In this document: positions 730 through 27,024 of the stretch, piece after piece
Layout: the number at the start of each line of letters is the position of its first letter
Position numbering within the stretch: the stretch's first letter is position 1
Assembly: GCF_004010195.1 (NCBI RefSeq)
Contig: NC_057751.1
Location: forward strand, 7,426,063 to 7,453,443
DNA length: 27,381 nucleotides
Origin: Chiloscyllium plagiosum
Taxonomy: Eukaryota
Direction: 5' to 3'
The notes under the pieces: model-generated
The model's input: the letters and a program-made list of their open reading frames with translations, nothing else
What the model was told of the DNA's origin: nothing
Databases searched by the model: none
Translations under genes and position numbers: made by a program

Positions 730-1827
730 TACACCAGGTCTTGCCATTAAGCAATGATTTAATCACATTGTCTCAGGAAATGGTGTGATCACCACATTGT
801 GTCTTGAGTGGCATGTGACTGTGGGAGAAATGGCTGGGGGTTGTCTTGTGGGCGTTACTGTAATATGAAACTTTTGTACTGTAGAAGGGAAGGATGTTTC
901 TTTTGTTCAGGCATCTCTTGACATGGCTCTGCAAGCCCTGCGAAGTGTTAAGAGTTCCTTCAGAAAGCTTGAACTTAATAAAATTTTGGTGGTACACAGA
1001 AGTTGCCGTATTGCAGTTGCATCAAGTGTGTAAGAGTCTTGAAAAAGAACTTCACATGTGCAGTGTGCATTGGACACTGTTTCCATCAAACATTGCTGCA
1101 AATAAAATTTGGGATTATCTGGAAAGCTGAATTTGTTTCTGTCTCAAATACTACCAGGCACATATTAAGCAGGCTAAATGGAGTAAAATTCCCTTCGCAG
1201 GGAAGAGGGCTCTGCCTTGTCCCAAGGGTGAAATTTTCAGGGTCCTTTGTGTACAGTATAGTAGCATGCAGGCAAGATCAGTACCTGCGGTTTTGATCTG
1301 AAGCCATGAAGGTTTCCAATGTAGTCATGTTGGCTGCTCCTGATAACCTTATGGTCTGCATCCCAGGATACTTAAGGAGGTGGCTCTAGAAATCCTGGAT
1401 GCATTGGTAATCATTTTCCAATGTTCAATAGATTAAGGATCAGTTCCAGCGGATGAAAGGATGACTAATGTTGTCCCAATTGTCAAGAAAGGAGGGAGAG
1501 AGAACAGGGAATTATAGACCAGTTAGGCTGATGTCAGTGGTGGGAAAGATGCTTGAGTCAATTATAAAAGATGAAGTTATGACTCACTTGGATAGTAGTA
1601 ACAGGATATGTCAGATTTACGAAGGGGAAATCGTGCTTGACTGATCTTACGGAATCTTTTGAGGATGTAACTACGAAGATGGACAAGGGAGAGTCAGTGG
1701 ATGTCGTGGACCTGGACTTTCAGAAAGACTTTGAAGTCCCACATGGGAGGTTAGTGAGCAAAATTAGGGCACATAGTATTTGGGGCAAAATACTGACTTG
1801 GACTGAAAATTGGCTGGCTGACAGGAA

Positions 1828-2041
1828 TGGAAATGTGTTGCTGGAAAAGCGCAGCAGGTCAGGCAGCATCTAGGGAACAGGAGAATCGACGTTTCGGGCA
1901 TTAGCCCTTCTTCAGGAATGAAGAAGGTCTAATGCCCGAAACGTCGATTCTCCTGTTCCCTAGATGCTGCCTGACCTGCTGCGCTTTTCCAGCAACACAT
2001 TTCCATCTCTGATCTCCAGCATCTGCAGACCTCACTTTCTC
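1828..2041. mobile_element. Palindromic Penelope-derived short element (family A) with 14-bp TSD
   Basis: Inverted arms 1827-1914 and 1919-2006 (88 bp, 1 mismatch, GGAA loop). TSD CTGGCTGACAGGAA at 1814-1827 and 2042-2055. Homologous to the Penelope terminus at 24480-24605. Confidence 0.9.
1881..1918 (-). ncRNA. Putative minimal type-I hammerhead ribozyme (PLE type), intact core
   Basis: Minus strand reads ttc-CTGAAGA-A-GGGC-TAAT-GCCC-GAA-ACGT-C-gattc: CUGANGA box, stem II, GAAA, palindromic ACGU stem III, GUC cleavage triplet. Stem I is very short. Confidence 0.6.
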
Positions 2042-3854
2042 CTGGCTGACAGGAAGCAAAGAGTAGTGATAAATGGGTTCCTTTTAGAACCCCAGTGGGG
2101 TACCTCAAGATTCGGTGGTGGGACAGCAGCTGTTGACAATATACATTAATGATATAGATGAAAGTATTAAATGCAATATCAGCAAATTTGCTGATGACAC
2201 AAAGTTCGGTGGCAGGATGAAATGTGAGGAGGATGTTCTGAGAATACAGGGTGACTTGGACAGGTTCAGGTGAGTGGAAGGATGCATGGCAGATGCATTT
2301 CAATGTGGATAAATGTGTGGTTATCCACTTTTAATGGCAAGAATAAGATTACTATCTAAATGGAGTCAAGTTAGGTAAGATCTACAAAGAGATCTAGGTG
2401 TTCTTGTATATCAGTCAATGAAAACAAACATGCAGCTACAGCAGGCAGTGAAGAAAGCAAATGGCATGCTAGCCTTCATAACAAGACGAATATCGGAGCA
2501 AATATAACCATCTGCAGCTGTACAGGACCCTGGTGAGACCGCACCTGGACTAATGTGTGCACTTTTGGTCTCCATTTTGGAAGGACATTTTGGCTATTGA
2601 GGGAGTGCAGTGTAGGTTCAGAAGGTCAGTTCCCGGAATGGCGAGACGATCTTACGCTGAAAGATTGGAGTGACTGGGTTTGTATACACTTGAATTTACA
2701 GGGATGAGAGGGGATCTGATTGAGACGTATAAGATTATTAAAAGGTTGGACACTCTCTGGAGGCAGGAAATATGTTTCCGCTGATGGGTGTGTCCAGAAC
2801 CAGAGGACACAGTTTAAAAGTGAAGCGTAGGCCATTTAGAACAGAGTTGAGGAGAAACTTCTTCACCCAGAGAGTGGTGGATATATGGAATGCTCTGCCC
2901 CAGAAGACAGTGGAGGCCGAGTCTCTGGATACTTTCAAGAAAGAGATGGATAGACCTCTTAGAGATAATGGAATCAAGGGTTATGGGCATAAGGCAGGAA
3001 CAGGATGCTGATTGTGCATGATCAGCCGTATCATAATGAATGGTGGTGGAGGCCCGAAGGGCCGACTCCTGCACCTATTGTATACATTGAACAGACAGCA
3101 GGTGTTAAACAGAAGATTGCTGTTGACCAGTATGTGGATTGGACTGGAGCAGCAGGGGCCCCTGACAAACCCACTGAAATAACCACTGTGAATTTGGTTT
3201 GCAACTATCATTCTATGAGTCAGTTGACATAAATCTATGTAATAACCAAAAGCTTGCTAAGCTTTGATTTCTGCATTGCTGGCTGTTATTTTATGCATGA
3301 AGCATTAACAGCTGGAACATGCATGAACAAACTATGGTGTCATGAGTATATGCCAGCATATTGCCAAGTCGACAGAAATTTGTGTTTCTAATGCAGTTCC
3401 TCGTCTGAATCTTCATTTTAGACCCAGCCAGATGGCTTCCTACGGTGCTGTTATATCTGCACAGGTTGTCTTAAAAGTTACAGCTTAATTGCTTTCACGA
3501 AAAGGAGATAGGAGCCACTGATGGTGAAATCACCTGCAGTTCATCAGTTTGGTGATGAGTGGTGACTGGAGTGAATCGTATCTATGATCTTCCGTATCCT
3601 TGACTTGAGCGTTGTCATCTGTGTTTAGATGGTATGTAATAATTCGCGTGTGAAATCATGGCACTGCATGTGGGAACTTCAGCTCAACCGTTTGCACTGC
3701 AACTTGGCTTTGTCGTTACAGCATTGGCTGACCAAATTCATTGAAGCATCTCCACAGCTTGCATGGTTAACGACAAGATGACTTGGATGCTAGTTACTCA
3801 TTGTTATGCTTTGCTTGACAGTGAAGTTGTGGGCTTTTCTAATTTTAGGAGTTC

Positions 3855-5246: not shown

Positions 5247-6215
5247 TAATTGTGTATTCAAGGTCCGTGATTGTTGGAGTTGGTTGTTGTGACTAGTGAT
5301 CATAGGTTGAAAGAGAATGGTAAACTCGTGGGTAACAATAAGGCTGGACAGGGAGCTTGAGGCAGGTGGTGAGAAAAACTGCAGCTGTGAAAGTTTCTTT
5401 TCAAAAGGCGCTGATGGGAATATTGGGGAAAATCTATGTGCGCTGAGGAGCTCCGTGGTTTGTAACACTGCTGTAAATAGCATACAGAAAGGTTTTTCAT
5501 TAGCCTAATGCAGGAGGTTTTGAGCAACATTGGCCATGAGTGCTGCCTTTACCCTGATGGAGATCTGAAACAATTAGGCCCATTGTTGGAATAGCCTCCT
5601 TCAACCAAAGTTGAGATACTGAGCAGCCAAGACTGTTGAAACTGAAATGGTTAGAATGAAAGACTTAAGACTACAGGAATGTAGTTCAGTTGTTTGAATC
5701 GTGATCTATATTAAAGGCAGTTGGCCTGGGTTTTATGATGAAGTTGCTTTGTCATGACTGAACTAAAAGCATTTTAATTTTGAAAAACTTGCATCTTGTC
5801 CATCAATCAGAAGTTAAATTTTGCCACTGGTTTTCAACAAATGTTCACAATATAATAGACTAAATGGAGGTCTCTTGTACTTGTTCTGCTGGAATGAGAT
5901 CCAGGCTCACCTTGAGACTTAATGGTTTGACAGATTATGCCTTGGAAACCCAGTGCACCTTGGCAGATGTTTCTCTGGTCTAATCGCATAGATGTTTGTT
6001 GCAGATTTGTGTTTGACGTGGGATAAAGCAATCAAGCTAAGTCAGATTTTTGTCATGACAGACATTAGACAATGGCTATGTGGTGATGGAAATGAAAGAG
6101 TTTAAGCAAAGTGTTGATAGTTTTGAGCCTGGAATTTTCTGTGTAGCCCCTCTTGTTGGCATTGTGGATTGAACAGGCATAAAAATGTTGTTATTGCTGG
6201 TCACACTAAAAGATG

Positions 6216-6332
6216 AAGGGTTCATGCCCAAAATGCCAATTATCCTGCTCCTCGGACGCTGCCTGACCTGTTGTGCTTTTCCAGCCCCCCTCTCTCGACT
6301 GATCTCTACCATCTGCAGTCCTCACTTTCTTG
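6216..6332 (+). mobile_element. Single-arm Penelope-derived family A element with 13-bp TSD
   Basis: Matches the right arm and tail of the 1828-2041 element. TSD ACACTAAAAGATG at 6203-6215 and 6333-6345. Hammerhead core degenerate. Confidence 0.85.
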
Positions 6333-7198
6333 ACACTAAAAGATGTGCAAAGAATCGTTTGAAGATGGTAATAAAAGATTTAGACACCCTGGGAGTGAGA
6401 TAAAAAACAGATTTAATGCTGAGTGTAATACATTGTGGCATTTCTGGAATGACATAAAACATTGACTGGAGTCAATGGTAAGTTGAAACCAATTGAGCAA
6501 AGTAGCACAAATGCTTTATTGTTGTGGACACTCAACTGCTATCAAGTGAGTAATGGATTCTGCTGGTCTTCGAGTGTTCATGTGTTCAAAGTTGGAATCG
6601 GCAGTGAGGTATTCTTGCTTGTAAATCAATGGTTTTACACACATTTGTATTCACAGCAGGTTTAAGGGAGCTACTGTACCTGACCAAGTGGGTGTTTTGC
6701 CAAAACTCAATAGTGGGAAATGTCTGAGCTATGGAACCTGTGCAGTAACATGTAGCCAAAGAGGAAGTAGCTCTTTTTGCACGTTAAAATGTTGAGTGGC
6801 CATAGAGAGTTGAATATTTCCACGTAGTACACGTAATTCAAAGGAAGGAAGGAAAGCTGGGATATGATAGAAGCTCAAAGATAATTTGGTGCATTGGACA
6901 GGTAGTACCAGAATACAACACAATCACTTAAGGCTATCTGAAATGTCCCTATAAAAATGTAAGAACTGGAAGATGTCATATAAGCAAATGGAAGAGTGTT
7001 TAAGCTAGTTAATGTGGAGGCAGTGCATTCTATGTGCAAAGAACTGCATGCTATTTTGGAACAAGTTTTTTTATTCTCTGACTTCATCCCTGGCTTGCTT
7101 ATTAGTCTTCAAATCTGTCCTGACAGAGGACTGCTTCTGTAAACTGTCAGGAATACTTCCTTAAGGTTTTGAAGCTTAAGACAAAATAACAATTTAGT

Positions 7199-7516
7199 GG
7201 GCGGCACGGTGGCACAGTGGTTAGCACTGCTGCCTCACAGCGCCAGAGACCCGGGTTCAATTCCCGCCTCAGGCGACTGACTGTGTGGAGTTTGCACGTT
7301 CTCCCCGTGTCTGCGTGGGTTTCCTCCGGGTGCTCCGGTTTCCTCCCACCATCCAAAGATGTGCAGGGTCAGGTGAATTGGCCATACTAAATTGCCTGCA
7401 GTGTTAAGTAAGGGGTAAATGTCGGGGTATGGGTGGGTTTCGCTTCGGCGGGTCGGTGTGGACTTGTTGGGCCGAAGGGCCTGTTCCCACACTGTAATCT
7501 AATCTAATCTAAAAAA
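7199..7516 (+). mobile_element. Full-length HE1-like tRNA-derived V-SINE
   Basis: Pol III A box TGGCACAGTGG (7210-7220), B box GGTTCAATTCC (7254-7264), V-domain TGTGTGGAGTTTGCACGTTCTCCCCGTGTCTGCGTGGG, (TAATC)n tail. Possible TSD AACAATTT at 7188-7195 and 7517-7524. Confidence 0.92.
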
Positions 7517-11601: not shown

Positions 11602-12107
11602 GTGTGCAAACAGAGACATTTTAATATTGATTATGGGGCAAGGTCAAGGAAGTGAAACAAGCGGTATCAAAAGGTTGTCTCAGTGTTAGGCATGTGCGTG
11701 AAAGTTCGTGATGCAGTATTGATTGCCCAGCAGGTGTTCTTCAGTTTATTGCTAGCAGTGCAACAATGCAACAGAATAAATTTCAGGATTTTTCAATGTT
11801 TTTACATGAGAGAGATATGGGTTGTGGTTGCAGTAGTTTGTCGTCTTGGATGATATGTGAGTGTGCAAGTGATTGGTGAGAAGTGGTTGGAGTTGGTGGG
11901 GAGGATGTTGCTGCATTTCATTTGTTCAGATGCACCTGACAACACAATGACCTGAGCTGTGTTGCGGCTTCCCGAGGAGGTTTTGAGCATTTAGCTCAGG
12001 TTTATTCTGACTTCCCCAGCCCCTTCCACGTGACTTGACTTGGGAGTTTGGATCAAGTCACGTCCACATCGTGAACTAGGGAGAGAATCGGGCTGTTTAA
12101 AGATTAG

Positions 12108-12323
12108 GAGAAAGTGAGTACTGCAGATGATGGCGATTAGAGTCATGATTGTGGTGCTGGAAAAGCACAGCAGGTCAGGCAGCATCTGGGGAGCAGGAAA
12201 ATCGACGTTTCTGGCAAGAGCCCTTCATTGGGAATGTCTGATGAAGGGCTTTCGCCCGAAATGTCGCTTTTCCTGCTCCTAGTTGCTGCCTGACTTATGC
12301 TTTTCCAGAACCACACTCTTGAC
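12108..12323. mobile_element. Palindromic Penelope-derived family A element (opposite orientation to 1828-2041) with 15-bp TSD
   Basis: TSD CTGTTTAAAGATTAG at 12093-12107 and 12324-12338. Imperfect inverted arms ~12141-12231 and ~12237-12323. + strand core CTGATGA-A-GGGC-TTTC-GCCC-GAAATGTC at 12238-12265. Confidence 0.88.
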
Positions 12324-17019: not shown

Positions 17020-18373
17020 AGTGCAGGATTGAAGGTCATTTAGCAGTTTGGATCAGCAATTGGCTCGCTGAAAGAAGAGAGAGTGGTGGGGTTGATGGGG
17101 TATGTTCATCCTGGAGCTCCGTTACCAGTGGTGTGCCGCAAGGAACTGTTTTGGAGTCACTGCTGTTTGTTATTTTTATAAATAACCTGGACGTGGGCAT
17201 AGAAAGATGGGTCAGTAAATTTAAGGCAAAGTTGGGGATAGTGTTGAGGAATGTTTTGGGTTACAGAGGGACATCAGTAAGATGCAGAGTTGGGCTGAGA
17301 AGTAGCAAATGGAGTTTAATGCGGAAATGTGTGAGGTAGTTCCCTTCAGAAGAAGGAATAGGAATGCAGAGTATTCGGTTAATAGTAAAATTCTTGGCAG
17401 TGTCGATGAACCGAGAGATCTGTGTTCAGGTACGTAGATCCCTGAAAGGTTCCACCCAAGTTGATAGGGTTATTCAGAAGGCATATGGTGTATTGGCGTT
17501 TATTGTTAGGGGTATTGAGTTTTGGAGCCATGATATCATGCTTCAGCTGTACAAGACACTGGTAAGGCCGCACCTGAAGTATTGCATGTAGTTATGGTCT
17601 CTGCATTGTAGGAAGGATTAGATTAGATTAGGTTTCCACATTACAGTGGCCTTGGGCCTAACAAGTCTACACCGACCCTCCGAAGAGCAACCCACCCAGA
17701 CCCATTCCCCTACATTTACCCCTTCACCTAACACTACAGGCAATTTAGCATGGCCAATTCACCTAACCTGCACATTTTTGGATTGTGGGAGGAAACCGGA
17801 GCACCCGCAAGAAACCCTCGCAGAATGTGCAAGCTCCACATATAGTTGCCCGAGGCGGGAATTGAACCCAGGTCTCTGGCGCTGTGAGGCAATAGTGCTA
17901 CCCACTGTGCCACCGTGCTGCCCATGGAAGTTTTGGAAAGGGTTCAGAGGAGATTCACTCTGATGTTGCCTGGTATGGAGGGAAGGTCTTAGGAGGAGAG
18001 GCTGAGGGAACTGATGCTGTTTTCATTGGAGAGAAGAAGGTTGAGAGGTGACTTAATCGAGACATATAAGATTGGGTGTGAGAGCCTTTTTCCTCAGATG
18101 GTGAAGGCTAACATGAGGGGACATAGCTTTAAATTGAGGGGTGACAGATTCAGGACAGATATCGGGGTAGTTTATTTATTTAGAGAGTCATAGGGGCCTG
18201 GAACGGCCTGCCTGCAACAGTAGCAGACTTGCTGACGTCAAGGGCATTTAAATGGGCATTGGACATACATATGTAATGGTGTAGGTTAGATGAGCATCAG
18301 ATTAATTTCACACGTTGGTGCAACATGGAGTGCTGAAGGGCCTGTATGGCGCTGTAATGTTCTGTATTCGATG
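17020..18373 (+). mobile_element. 5'-truncated decayed CR1-type LINE, interrupted by HE1 SINE
   Basis: [82 protein letters not shown], 3' UTR ending CTGTAATGTTCTGTATTCGATG. Confidence 0.9.
17619..17923 (-). mobile_element. HE1-like V-SINE, antisense, nested in CR1
   Basis: Reverse complement of the 7199-7516 family: (GATTA)n tail on the left, CCACTGTGCCACCGTGCTGCCC on the right. CR1 reads through ...AGGAAGGAT|ATGGAAG when it is removed. Confidence 0.92.
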
Positions 18374-21692: not shown

Positions 21693-21997
21693 GTAAAGTC
21701 TTTGTTATGGTTTATTTTCTTATCAATGATCAGTGAGTGCATGGAGAATGAAATACTGCCCATGGTAGATATGAAATGCTGGAATGAAGTCAGGTAAAAC
21801 CCAGGTTAGTTGTGGAATGCAAGTCTCTCTTCATTGGGTCATGAAATGCTTCCAAGGCATTTGAGCCTAGGTCACATGCAGGGTCAAAATCAAGAGCCAG
21901 ATGCTGGTGCACTGTACCAGCAAAACAGAAAGCTTTGATCATGAAGATACATTGGAAACTGGATAATACGTAGATGCAACGCATTGTCGTCGAGGAT

Positions 21998-22219
21998 AAA
22001 AATCACACAACACCAGGTTATAGTCCAGCAGATTTATTTGGAAGCACTAGCTTTCGGAGCACTGCTCCTTCATAAGGCGATTCTCCACAACCACCTGATG
22101 AAGGAGCAGCGCTCCAAAAGCTAGTGCTTCCAAACAAACCTGTTGGACTGTAATCTGGTGTTGTGTGATTTTTTTACTTTGTACACCCCAGTCCAACATC
22201 AGCATTTCCAAATCATGAC
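21998..22219. mobile_element. Palindromic Penelope-derived family B element with hammerhead-like cores
   Basis: Inverted arms 21998-22077 and 22094-22173. Core CAC-CTGATGA-A-GGAGC-AGC-GCTCC-(A)AA-AGCT-A-GTG. Possible TSD TCGTCGAGGAT/TCTTCAAGGAT (21987-21997, 22220-22230, 9/11). Confidence 0.8.
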
Positions 22220-22274
22220 TCTTCAAGGATGACGTTTGTTCAGTCATTCAAGGTGCCTGGTTCAGCTATGATTG

Positions 22275-22720: not shown

Positions 22721-23683
22721 ACAAAAAAATGTATACAGACAAGTCATAATCAACAGTTAAAGAAGGCATGAGACAAGTCTCAGGAGAAAGATGTTCAAGT
22801 GTAGGAGGAAGCTAGCAAGCAATGTGCATGGATAGCAAGACTCAGCATAGGAATTGGAGAAGGAAGATTGTCAGTCCAGTGAGTGGTGGCCCTTTGAGAT
22901 TTGGATAGAATCACAAGATTACAACATGTTATTGACAGAGAGGAGGATACCAAATATTCCACTAATGGGCTGACAAGGCTCAACTGGAGACGGATGTCAT
23001 ACTATGATCTGAGGTGTTTCTAAAGGCTGTATGAAAGAAAAGTCTGTAAAATGTGGCAAGGTTACTTCAAACAAGCATGAATCAAAGATAAGCATTAAAG
23101 TCATGAAGCCAGGAAGGTAGAAAACAAAACTGATAGGTTAGTTAGCCTCCTTTCTGCAGAGATGATCAAATGTTCATGATATTCTAACTGGTTTGCAGTG
23201 TGGGGGGTTATCTTGAGATTCCCAGGAAGATTCAGCATGCCTTCCTCAACATTTAGGCTATCCATGGTACTCTTTGGTTTCATAGCCAAGTGCTAACTCA
23301 ATTCAAACAGCTCAGCTTTCAATCCTGTGTATGTCCTGAAATTAATTTAAAAATCAGAGACCGAACTTCTCTTTGCCTAACTGGATGTAATGAAATTCAC
23401 ATGTGGTTGCAGTACCTCAGTGTGCCTCAGGAAAGAGGTCATGTTCATTCTGTATTCAATAGTGTCTCCTGGAAGTTGGATTGCAGAAGGCTTTTCATCT
23501 CACTGAACAAAGTCAAAGGTGACAGTGTAGGGGTTGGATAGTATCCTGAATAGAAGACTGATGAAAACAGAATGCATACATGGTACTTGGCTGCAATGAC
23601 CTAGATAAGCTAAGTGAATAAGTATAAATTAAAATTGGACATGAGACCACCATACGTTATTAACTATATTCTGAAGAAGATAT

Positions 23684-24017
23684 GAAAAATGTGGTGCTGG
23701 AAAAACACAGCAGACTAGGTGAATTGGCCATGCTAAATTGCCTGTAGTGTTCGGTAAGGGGTAAATGTAGGGGTATGGGTGGGTTGCACTTCGGCGGGAC
23801 GGTGTGGACTTGTTGGGCCGAAGGTCCTGTTTCCACACTGTAAGTAATCTAATCTAATCTAATCTAATCGAAAACCAGGCAGCATCTGAGGAGCAGGAAA
23901 GGGCTTATGCCTGAAACGTCGATTCTCCTGCTCCTCGGATGCTGCCTGGCCTGCTGTGTTTTTCCAGCACCACATTTTTCAACTCTGGTCGCCAGCATCT
24001 GCAGTCCTCACTTTCTC
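23684..24017. mobile_element. Palindromic family A element with nested truncated HE1 SINE
   Basis: TSD CTGAAGAAGATAT/CTGAAGAAGGTAT (23671-23683, 24018-24030). Left arm broken by SINE; hairpin centre including CTGATGA missing. Confidence 0.85.
23717..23874 (+). mobile_element. 5'-truncated HE1-like SINE (3' half)
   Basis: AGGTGAATTGGCCATGCTAAATTG...GGCCGAAGG.CCTGTTTCCACACTGT + (TAATC)n, matching 7371-7510. Confidence 0.9.
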
Positions 24018-24479
24018 CTGAAGAAGGTATCTCCTGAAGATGGTTGTTAATCAGTGACCAAATGGACAAGAATCTGGCACATGGAGTATCAACATGGGAC
24101 AATGACAAGTTCAAATTTGGTGTGAAGAATAAGCATTTAGCTATTGCAACAGTGATTAAGTGGAAGTTTGTAAGTGCAGGGAGATTTGGGTTTTGTGATG
24201 CATGATTTGCACCAACGTTGTGTGTCGGAGAGACACACAGAACAAGCACATAGGCTGAGAGCACATTTCCAATACTGCTTTTGAACTCTTTCCCTTAAGA
24301 TCTAAAAGGGAGGTCACGGGTGGTTTTATTTTCAAATTCAGCTGATAAACTGAAGCAGGCCATTTAGCCCTTAACCTTGACAGTGACTGGTCTGCTGTTG
24401 ACATTGACTCTTTAATGCCCTTAACTCCACATTGTTTCAAACATACATGCAAGTTCTTCAGTGACTTCTGGTGATCTTG

Positions 24480-25733
24480 GAGAAAGTGAGGACTGCACAT
24501 GCTGGAGGTCAGAGTGAAGAATGTGGTGCTGGAAAAGCACAGCTGGTCAGGCAACACCCAAGGCGAGGAGAATCAGTATTTTGGGCGTAAGCCCTTCACC
24601 AGGAATGAGACTTGTGGGCAGGACGGCTGAGAGATAAATGGAAGGGGGAATGTAGGTAGATGAAGGTGGGGGAAAAGGTGATAGGTCGGAGAGGAGGGTG
24701 GAGCGGACACGTGAAGAGGGTGGTACTGAGTTGGAAGATTGGATCTGGGATTAGGTGGGGGTGGGGGGAGGGAAGTGAGGAAACTGGTGAAATCCATATT
24801 GATCCCGTGTGGTTGGAGGATTCCAAGGTGGAACATGAGGCGTTCTGCCTCCTGGTGTCAGGTGGTTAGGGTTTGGCTATGGACGAGGCCCAGGACCTGC
24901 ATGTTCTTCATGGAGTCGGAGGGGGAGTTGAAGTGTTCACCCACGGGGCAGTGGGATTGATTGGCATGAGTGTCCCAGAGTTGTTCTCTGAAACCATGTC
25001 TCCATCAGGGAGACAGGATGCCAACTCGCCTCTACATCGGGGAGACAGGGCGACAACTTGTGACCCTATCTGTGTTTCAGAGAGCCCATTTGATCCACGC
25101 TACCCAACACCCCCCGGCACCTTCTGCCACCGCAAGTAGTGCGAAAACCTGCACATGAACCTCCTCCCTCACCTCCGTCCAAGGCCCCAAAGGATCCTTC
25201 AACATCTGATAGAAATTTACCTGTCCTTCCGCACAAGTTATCAACTATATCTGCTGCACCCGATATGCTCTCCCCTACATTGGGGAGAGAGGTTGCCCAC
25301 TTGCGGAACGCTTCAGAGAAGATCTCCGGGACACCCGCATCGACCAACCCCACCATCCTGTGGCCGAACAGTTCAACTCCCCCTCCCACTCCATCAAGGA
25401 CATGGAGTTCCTGGGCTGCCTCCATCACCACACCCTGGAGGAAGAACGCCTCATCTTTTGCTTTGGTCCTGCGTGGTTGGAGGGTCCTAATGTGGATTTC
25501 ACCAGTTTCCTCATTTCCCTTCCCCCGGTCCTCAGCCTCCAACTTGGCACTGCCTTCTTGACCTATCCATCTTCCTTCCCACCAGTCCACTCCACCCTCC
25601 TCTTCAAGCTATCACCTTTTCCCCCACCTTCATGTACCTATAGCATTCCCAGATACCTCCCCAGCCCCTCCCTGGTCCACAAGCCTCATTTCTGATTAAG
25701 GGCTTATGCCCGAAATGTCAATTATTGTGTTCC
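24480..25733. mobile_element. Penelope-like retroelement insertion (GIY-YIG endonuclease region) with inverted architecture
   Basis: + strand 25005-25733: LYIGETGRQL, PGTFCHRK..KTC, YIGERGCPLAERFRE, PVAEQFNSPSHSIKDMEFLG, EEERLIFCFG. Minus strand 24480-~24995 carries the same 3' region with a complete terminus. TSD TCTGGTGATCTTG/TCTTGTGACCTTG (24467-24479, 25734-25746, 11/13). Confidence 0.88.
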
Positions 25734-26889: not shown

Positions 26890-26983
26890 AGACTGGAGAC
26901 TGTGGTGCTGCAAAAGCACAGCAGGTCAGGCAACATCTGAGAAGCAGGAAAATTGACATTTCGGGCCCGAGCCCTTCATCAGG
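26890..26983 (-). mobile_element. Single-arm family A element with near-intact hammerhead-like core
   Basis: Minus strand 26983-26951 reads CCTGATGA-A-GGGC-TCGG-GCCC-GAAATGTC-AATT. Confidence 0.8.
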
Positions 26984-27024
26984 AGGGTAACTTGGAAACC
27001 TTTGGTGGTCTTTGTTCCTGAGAT

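Follow-up and report, generated by a model that had tools for sequence, protein, structure and literature searches.

The window, the whole 27,381-nt stretch of Chiloscyllium plagiosum DNA that was analysed, contains a hairpin insertion at positions 1814 to 2055. Two inverted arms of 88 bp (1827-1914 and 1919-2006) differ by a single mismatch (1905/1928) and enclose the loop GGAA (1915-1918), and a 14-bp direct repeat (TSD) bounds the insert (1814-1827 and 2042-2055). All of these had been described in a first-pass annotation of this DNA, and all are present in the sequence. A further 35 nt of element sequence (2007-2041), absent from that annotation, lie outside the pairing and correspond to the "tail" of Penelope-like elements (PLEs). 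The RNA fold of the hairpin has a free energy of -195.3 kcal/mol (z = -25.3), equalled by 0 of 200 shuffled sequences. In what follows, offsets are counted from C3 of the hammerhead motif (position 0), with the predicted cut after +27. The features are as follows.

1400..2800 (approximate bounds), + strand: decayed older LINE RT region that hosts the insertion, from translation of the flanks
1814..1827, + strand: left copy of the TSD, 14 bp of host LINE RT sequence; the site is single in other LINE copies
1827..1921, - strand: short arm, the inverted element head, offsets -6 to +89 from hammerhead C3 (1915), from copy comparison
1884..1919, - strand: intact minimal type I hammerhead motif, in agreement with the description in the available text of PMC4209133
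1915..1928, + strand: junction, with the GGAA loop, a 9-nt fold-back stretch and an extra T at 1928, from the antisense fold; unique in the genome
1919..2006, + strand: paired part of the long arm, the element head in sense orientation without C3, from arm pairing and copy comparison
2007..2041, + strand: unpaired 35-nt PLE "tail" between two inferred RT start sites (available text of PMC11167929 and PMC3846280)
2042..2055, + strand: right copy of the TSD; the modal TSD is 14-16 bp, in 41 of 54 hairpins

The hairpin is a Neptune-type PLE that inserted recently and in truncated form, as a head of ~125 nt (hammerhead, spacer and 35-nt tail) and an inverted second copy. Both the layout and the hammerhead motif have already been published for PLEs. 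The insertion unit of EN+ PLEs is described as an inverted 5'-truncated pLTR with a 30-40-bp tail and a TSD (Arkhipova 2013, PMC3846280; Craig 2021, PMC8557442; both as far as their text was available), and in the family studied here we found RT followed by a C-terminal GIY-YIG domain, an inverted truncated copy, a tail, a TSD and a hammerhead in the terminal repeat. The short arm is identical at 93 of 93 bases to a natural copy at another locus (L099), and the long arm (1932-2041) has the commonest letter in every column of 78 copies. The window copy is thus among the youngest of its family, in line with the earlier proposal that it is young.

Translation of the flanks gives a single LINE RT frame that is interrupted by the insert (WTENWLADR and QRVVING), and other LINE copies are continuous across the site (NWLADRRQRVV). 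Identity of the flanks to other LINE copies is at most 87%, and the flank matches the Pfam RT model weakly (E 0.069). The first-pass annotation had placed the insertion within an older CR1; the flanks confirm a decayed LINE RT on the + strand, which we take to be CR1-like. No host gene was found at the Pfam cut-off in the 146 of 202 non-repeat reading stretches of the window that were scanned.

Read on the minus strand from 1915, the hammerhead sequence is CUGAAGA-A-GGGC-UAAU-GCCC-GAAA-CG-UC. Its parts are a helix I of AUUC/GAUU with one U-U, the core CUGAAGA, an extra A, a helix II of GGGC/GCCC, GAAA, and a palindromic ACGU. The following elements of a minimal type I hammerhead are present: CUGANGA, GAAA and UH, an extra base after A9, the G10.1-C11.1 pair and a palindromic helix III. 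H17 is the C at 1888, so that the predicted cut falls between 1888 and 1887. The sequence agrees with the earlier claims that the minus-strand core is intact and would be cut at this point, and that the sense copy reads ATGAAGA, without C3. In the + strand copy helix II is altered too, by a G-to-T change at 1928. According to the available text of PMC4209133, minimal PLE hammerheads recurrently show an extra base after A9, G10.1-C11.1 and a palindrome, and have low activity in vitro; an extra base at this place, previously considered tolerated, is a conserved feature of the PLE motif. The motif here shares with those in that report the type I topology, the extra base between 9 and 10.1, the G10.1-C11.1 pair, the palindromic 15.2/16.2, a short helix I and an occurrence mostly in solo truncated copies. 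It differs in having a helix II of 4 bp and a helix I of three Watson-Crick pairs plus a U-U mismatch, and is known here from sequence. Cartilaginous fish are not named among the motif carriers in the available text of that report.

A covariance-model search for hammerheads had been suggested as a check, and an Rfam scan of the window gave no hammerhead match up to E 5. The scan returned only sub-threshold matches to miRNA hairpins; these are chance matches, and we rejected a miRNA precursor as an identity for the hairpin. In RNA folds, helix II forms with a probability of 0.99 in isolation and 0.0 within the hairpin. Helix I, expected to have 4-5 bp in a motif of this type, is weak (pair probability < 0.1), and the hammerhead-like fold lies 3 kcal/mol above the MFE. 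Cofolding of two copies yields just the palindrome duplex, and such a cofold is blind to a dimeric hammerhead. The minus-strand fragment 1860-1925 that the first-pass annotation had put forward takes in 6 bases of the other arm; 1919 is where the natural unit begins.

The 3.56-Gb genome contains a large family of related copies. Genome-wide there are 3,802 exact matches to a 39-mer from the tail and 8,742 to a 33-mer that follows the cut site, with the natural TC kept in 99 of the first 100 listed. Upstream of the segment from -5 to +35, the same C-rich stretch was found in 22 of 30 copies, behind a GIY-YIG domain that marks the 3' end of a PLE ORF. The most informative locus (L106) has a 561-aa open frame with matches to RVT_1 (E 1.4e-8) and GIY-YIG (E 5e-4; 20.7 bits with a cut-off of 22.6), and its element end is 93.6% identical to 1919-2043 of the window. 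This link between an RT + GIY-YIG ORF and the same end sequence bears out the earlier assignment to a recently mobile Penelope-like family. The linker that joins RT to EN has the form CxxxxCxxC, with CKCKRCKTC in L106 and CNRRRCKTC in L101. In the available text of PMC8557442, a CX2-5CxxC linker at this position marks Neptune and is shared with Nematis; by its linker the parent would be of Neptune type, with the limit that the linker alone does not part Neptune from Nematis. Open frames of 900-1,470 aa were rejected as full ORFs, as they span assembly gaps. No complete ORF was found in this assembly, which has gaps there, and a PDB sequence search with the ORF gave 0 matches. The same head, hammerhead included, occurs both after the 3' end of the ORF and before its 5' part, where the first in-frame ATG, read by eye, is ~160 nt past C3. 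Because the head also precedes the 5' part of the ORF, the long arm has the element's sense strand on +, which makes the short arm the inverted copy.

The window also contains a second PLE family (family B) at 21993-22220, a hairpin insertion of the same layout with its own minimal hammerhead and a tail of ~40 nt. Its GIY-YIG domain is 30% identical to that of the first family (family A), and the two have no other significant likeness. Elsewhere, a family A stub is inserted in a family B hairpin at the start of its tail region (L233, ~1370-1500). The window has older family A sequence as well: a long copy at 24479-25733 with inverted fragments of the GIY-YIG region (67-72% identity to L106), and stubs or hairpins of CTGATGA subfamilies at 6206-6334, 12106-12323, 23678-24020 and 26894-26987. 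At L041/L042 and L056, which are different loci, the same LINE-like sequence lies upstream of a truncated element copy, as either a repeated target or a copied composite.

We examined conservation of the motif in 96 older arms (<94% identity) out of 369 examined. Apart from CpG decay and N7, the motif columns are 88-99% conserved. In the older arms, the non-CpG changes that are shared lie at N7, in loop II and at the mismatched pair of helix I, and the seven changes at G5 are mostly junction artefacts, six of them visibly so. A compensatory change from G-C to A-T in helix II is present in 6 of the 96, all in one older subfamily (Fisher p = 0.003), and probably reflects one event. Helix II occurs as GGGC/GCCC, GAGC/GCTC and GGAGC/GCTCC. 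The family B hammerhead has the last of these, together with AGCT in place of the ACGT palindrome and a 3-bp helix I of CAC/GTG (CAC/GUG in the RNA), where family A has three Watson-Crick pairs and the U-U mismatch. Covariation of stem II, which had been named beforehand as a check, is thus real across subfamilies and the second family; the counts are low and the independent events few. The hammerhead comes from active parents, in which it is probably selected; at this locus it travels as a passenger. Other minimal-hammerhead variants were encountered as single matches at L270 and L096 (helix II GAGTC/GACTT; helix I of 5-6 bp), and these probably belong to other PLE families.

To describe the insertions as a population, we used 90 of the first 92 tail matches listed, leaving out two long copies, and dropped 7 that were bounded by gaps, which left 83. 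Four of the 7 run upstream, so long copies are under-counted. An adjacent inverted arm is present in 54 of the 83 copies, and 25 have none. The 54 hairpins have 44 distinct junctions, and the junction of the window copy has 1 match in the genome. Most junctions are non-palindromic, with deletions, duplications or foreign bases; one junction recurs 5 times and another 4 times, both by microhomology of 2-3 nt. The TSD is 14-16 bp in most hairpins (see above), and the outer end of the short arm falls at +88 to +93 in 44 of the 54. The outer ends of the two arms are thus at about +90 and +125, 35 nt apart. Long copies carry inverted arms of 98-571 bp.

The first-pass annotation had described a family whose ribozyme lies within its own antisense arm; our counts do not support this layout as a trait of the unit that moves. 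In a strong form of this idea, the hairpin itself would be a non-autonomous, MITE- or retrozyme-like unit that is copied whole, its ribozyme silenced by the antisense arm. The hairpins are very uniform in size, exist in thousands of copies, and include the two short junctions that recur, all of which would fit such a unit. However, the sampled hairpins have 44 junctions among 54, the recurring ones being microhomology joins; the window junction is unique genome-wide; arm lengths run without a break up to 571 bp; and nearly a third of the copies have no inverted arm at all. We therefore regard copying of the hairpin as very improbable, and the idea of a MITE as largely refuted, since copies do not share internal structure. 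A non-LTR retrozyme was rejected also: such elements are described as tandem in the available text of bioRxiv 2026.07.22.740005, and the locus has a single head-to-head pair in place of head-to-tail tandem units each with a hammerhead.

Each hairpin appears instead to have been made at its own insertion. In the fold of the antisense strand, GGAA naturally forms the loop of a mini-hairpin, TCA-GGAA-TGA, and copies with other junctions have the extra T of 1928 ahead of the same base, within a set chosen by likeness to the window copy. As the window junction is unique, we read the loop and the loss of C3, and likewise the 1905/1928 mismatch, as products of joining and not of selection. The first-pass annotation had suggested that the broken sense copy spares the host pre-mRNA, and the + strand copy does lack C3 and have a mismatched helix II. 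Both changes, however, lie within the junction, with the loss of C3 exactly at the join, so that no protection of the host is needed to explain it; most hairpin long arms lose parts of the core whatever the locus; and the window scan described above found no host exon. Moreover, the intact minus-strand motif would be silent too, because it is fully paired in the hairpin. In a head-to-head pair, transcription from either side meets the antisense arm first; with a modelled helix II probability near 0, neither copy would be expected to cut. Selection to spare the host is scarcely credible as the origin of the broken motif.

We consider it very likely that the window copy arose as a truncated PLE insertion by two staggered cuts, synthesis of two short cDNAs, and a head-to-head join after run-off at the 5' end of the RNA. 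The element's enzyme would cut both target strands ~14 bp apart, and two short cDNAs would be primed on the RNA head, at +125 and +90, the short arm probably corresponding to the cDNA from the inner of the two start sites. The cDNAs would be short since the element RNA would begin at about -4, just upstream of the hammerhead, and synthesis would run off there. A brief snap-back would follow, in the window copy on the natural mini-hairpin of the short cDNA, leaving the GGAA loop, and the two cDNAs would then be joined head to head. Once inserted, the copy would stay uncleaved, its antisense arm being made first from either side and helix II unable to form.

This scheme combines what we observed in the genome (arms, tail, TSD, the link to RT + GIY-YIG, per-copy junctions, outer ends, and inner ends that pile up at -4/-5, as described below) with in vitro work on another PLE, in which both strands are cut and extended from two start sites on an uncut RNA template (PMC11167929, available text). 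In that work, on an anole PLE, synthesis starts from two internal sites that bound the tail, the hammerhead needs protein, and uncut RNA is the main template. An alternative is a single cDNA that folds back and primes itself, on an antisense or sense template, to give the inverted arm, with a resolution that leaves the tail. The window loop is indeed a natural antisense mini-hairpin, and palindromic junctions and self-priming have been proposed for rotifer PLEs (PMC3846280, available text). At the window copy, twin priming and this model are not directly distinguishable. Across copies, the mostly non-palindromic junctions, with their deletions, duplications or foreign bases, argue against self-priming, as do the outer ends at two fixed sites 35 nt apart, like the start sites seen in vitro (PMC11167929, available text). 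We consider the single-cDNA model improbable.

The inner ends of the arms report where synthesis stopped. Inner ends at -8 to -1 were found for 30 of 83 long arms and 35 of 54 short arms, with a pile-up at -4/-5, the first base of hammerhead helix I. A further 37 long arms and 14 short arms end within the motif, at 0 to +23; for the long arms we ascribe this provisionally to trimming at the join. Very few end at +24 to +33 (1 of 83 long and 2 of 54 short), and 6 of 83 long and 2 of 54 short arms run further upstream. Genome-wide, 889 arms have a foreign (non-C) base at -5 and 2,762 have C, of which ~8 in 30 also end near -5, giving an estimated ~1,500 arms that end at -4/-5. In family B the boundary is broader, with 12 of 30 long arms and 13 of 23 short ones ending at -14 to -1.

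The cut site left a much smaller signal. A foreign purine directly before it is present in 41 arms genome-wide, and 22 of 30 inspected are true junctions; at a control site (+32) there are 11 such arms, 6 of them junctions. The resulting excess, ~30 junctions at the cut site compared to 6 at +32, may reflect cleavage of a few percent of templates, on the basis of one control site and confounded by microhomology.

Several properties of the -4/-5 boundary suggest that synthesis ran off a capped RNA start and then jumped between templates, and we infer that -4/-5 may be the RNA start. Among the first 100 non-C bases listed at -5 there are 62 G, 35 A and 3 T. In 30 arms inspected by eye, most A's were supplied by neighbouring sequence; of 19 G's, ~7 did not come from it, 9 possibly did, and 3 were unclear. 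At the 5' ends of full-length L1 copies, the cap has been held responsible for an extra G (PMC11702581, available text). Of 30 loci selected for an N-terminal ORF fragment, 20 have that fragment joined to a head with nothing between. Nineteen of the 20 joins lie at -7 to -2, at scattered ORF positions, and two share one junction. At loci L258-L287 (e.g. L262, L269, L277 and L279) such fragments sit on the head at -4/-5 with element ends flanking, and these joins are likely template jumps after run-off. The base at -5 is C in 14 of the 20 ORF-jump junctions and G in 2, and a pure cap model does not fit. All 12 heads that continue into the ORF begin at -7 or further in.

The boundary could instead be a strong RT pause on a longer RNA, caused by structure or a bound protein. 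The genomic C at -5 in those 14 junctions would be expected from a longer template, as would the spread of family B ends and the ~2,000 arms that run on upstream (2,762 x 22/30). Against a pause, the stop lies past the structured motif and not before it, the non-C bases at -5 are strongly biased to G over T, with some of the G's not supplied by neighbours, and the heads that continue into the ORF begin within the boundary region or further in. The boundary site, TCATTCC, is an initiator-like word, and this too would favour an RNA start. We hold a pause to be possible, somewhat short of probable. In an RNA sequencing run (X19), reads from many genomic copies and both strands rise ~tenfold across the -4/-5 boundary; no pile of molecule starts or ends was seen there among these mixed reads.

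In LTR retroelements, priming near the 5' end of the RNA yields a short run-off cDNA, minus-strand strong-stop DNA, that must jump in the first strand transfer. A bolder reading, which we consider doubtful as a whole, is that the stubs are fossils of a similar step in PLEs. The capped RNA would start at the first base of helix I, priming would occur just 90 or 125 nt inside, and the strong-stop cDNA would jump to a 32-nt acceptor repeat made by the ribozyme. Cleavage by the hammerhead of the downstream repeat, at +28, would provide this terminal repeat, and receiving the jump would regenerate the pseudo-LTR; failed jumps would give hairpins and solos, and stray jumps partial tandems. The end counts, the extra G and the ORF joins support the run-off and jump steps. 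Among 184 arms classed, from loci chosen with bias, no jump acceptor lay exactly at +28 (two labels were chance matches), and there was one near case (L145/L296). The process proposed here is like strong-stop synthesis in its short run-off cDNA that jumps and unlike it in being target-primed, without a tRNA primer; homologous R-region transfer is a feature of the LTR elements. The available text of Schostak 2008 (PMC2377424) places a start site in the pseudo-LTR and sees no obvious mechanism of regeneration. A literature search that included few subscription papers found nothing relevant on a ribozyme-made jump acceptor or on shark PLE hammerheads; a text search of the PMC11167929 supplements gave no match, and supplementary figures there and in PMC4209133 may show 5' ends or shark motifs.

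The closest known systems are the EN+ PLE insertion units (PMC3846280, PMC8557442) and Poseidon PAc of Anolis carolinensis (Frangieh 2024, PMC11167929), each compared on the text available. With the former, the insertions share the head-to-head inverted copy, the tail on one arm, the TSD, palindrome or microhomology at the join, and partial tandems. They differ in that the typical insert is just a 95-125-nt head and inner ends pile up at the first base of the hammerhead, and the TSD is 14-16 bp where rotifer examples have 8-10 bp. With PAc they share a hammerhead close to the transcript unit's 5' end, start sites that bound the tail, extension of both strands, an uncut RNA template and the absence of reads ending at the cut site. 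The linker here is of Neptune type, and the ORF starts ~160 nt after C3, in PAc within helix II. The run-off point and the jumps are not described in the part of the PAc report available. To these systems the analysis adds counts across the genome, the surplus of G at -5 and the jumps to ORF fragments. The window locus is a dead stub of a known PLE class, and its family is a large natural record of PLE insertion, in which thousands of young copies mark the two sites of priming, a stagger of 14-16 bp, a sharply placed run-off point and frequent jumps. These copies make the role of the PLE hammerhead and the regeneration of pseudo-LTRs and tandems testable.

Two minor observations concern the sequences around the copies. 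At L001-L030 many TSDs begin with CTGGC or CTC, matching the element end, in a set retrieved with a query that included the TSD; in an unbiased set the overlap of TSD and element end is mainly CT or CC. A SINE-like short dispersed repeat is present in the window at 7198-7515, 17650-17924 and 23710-23875, with copies up to 92% alike, and one copy is nested in the family A hairpin at 23678-24020.
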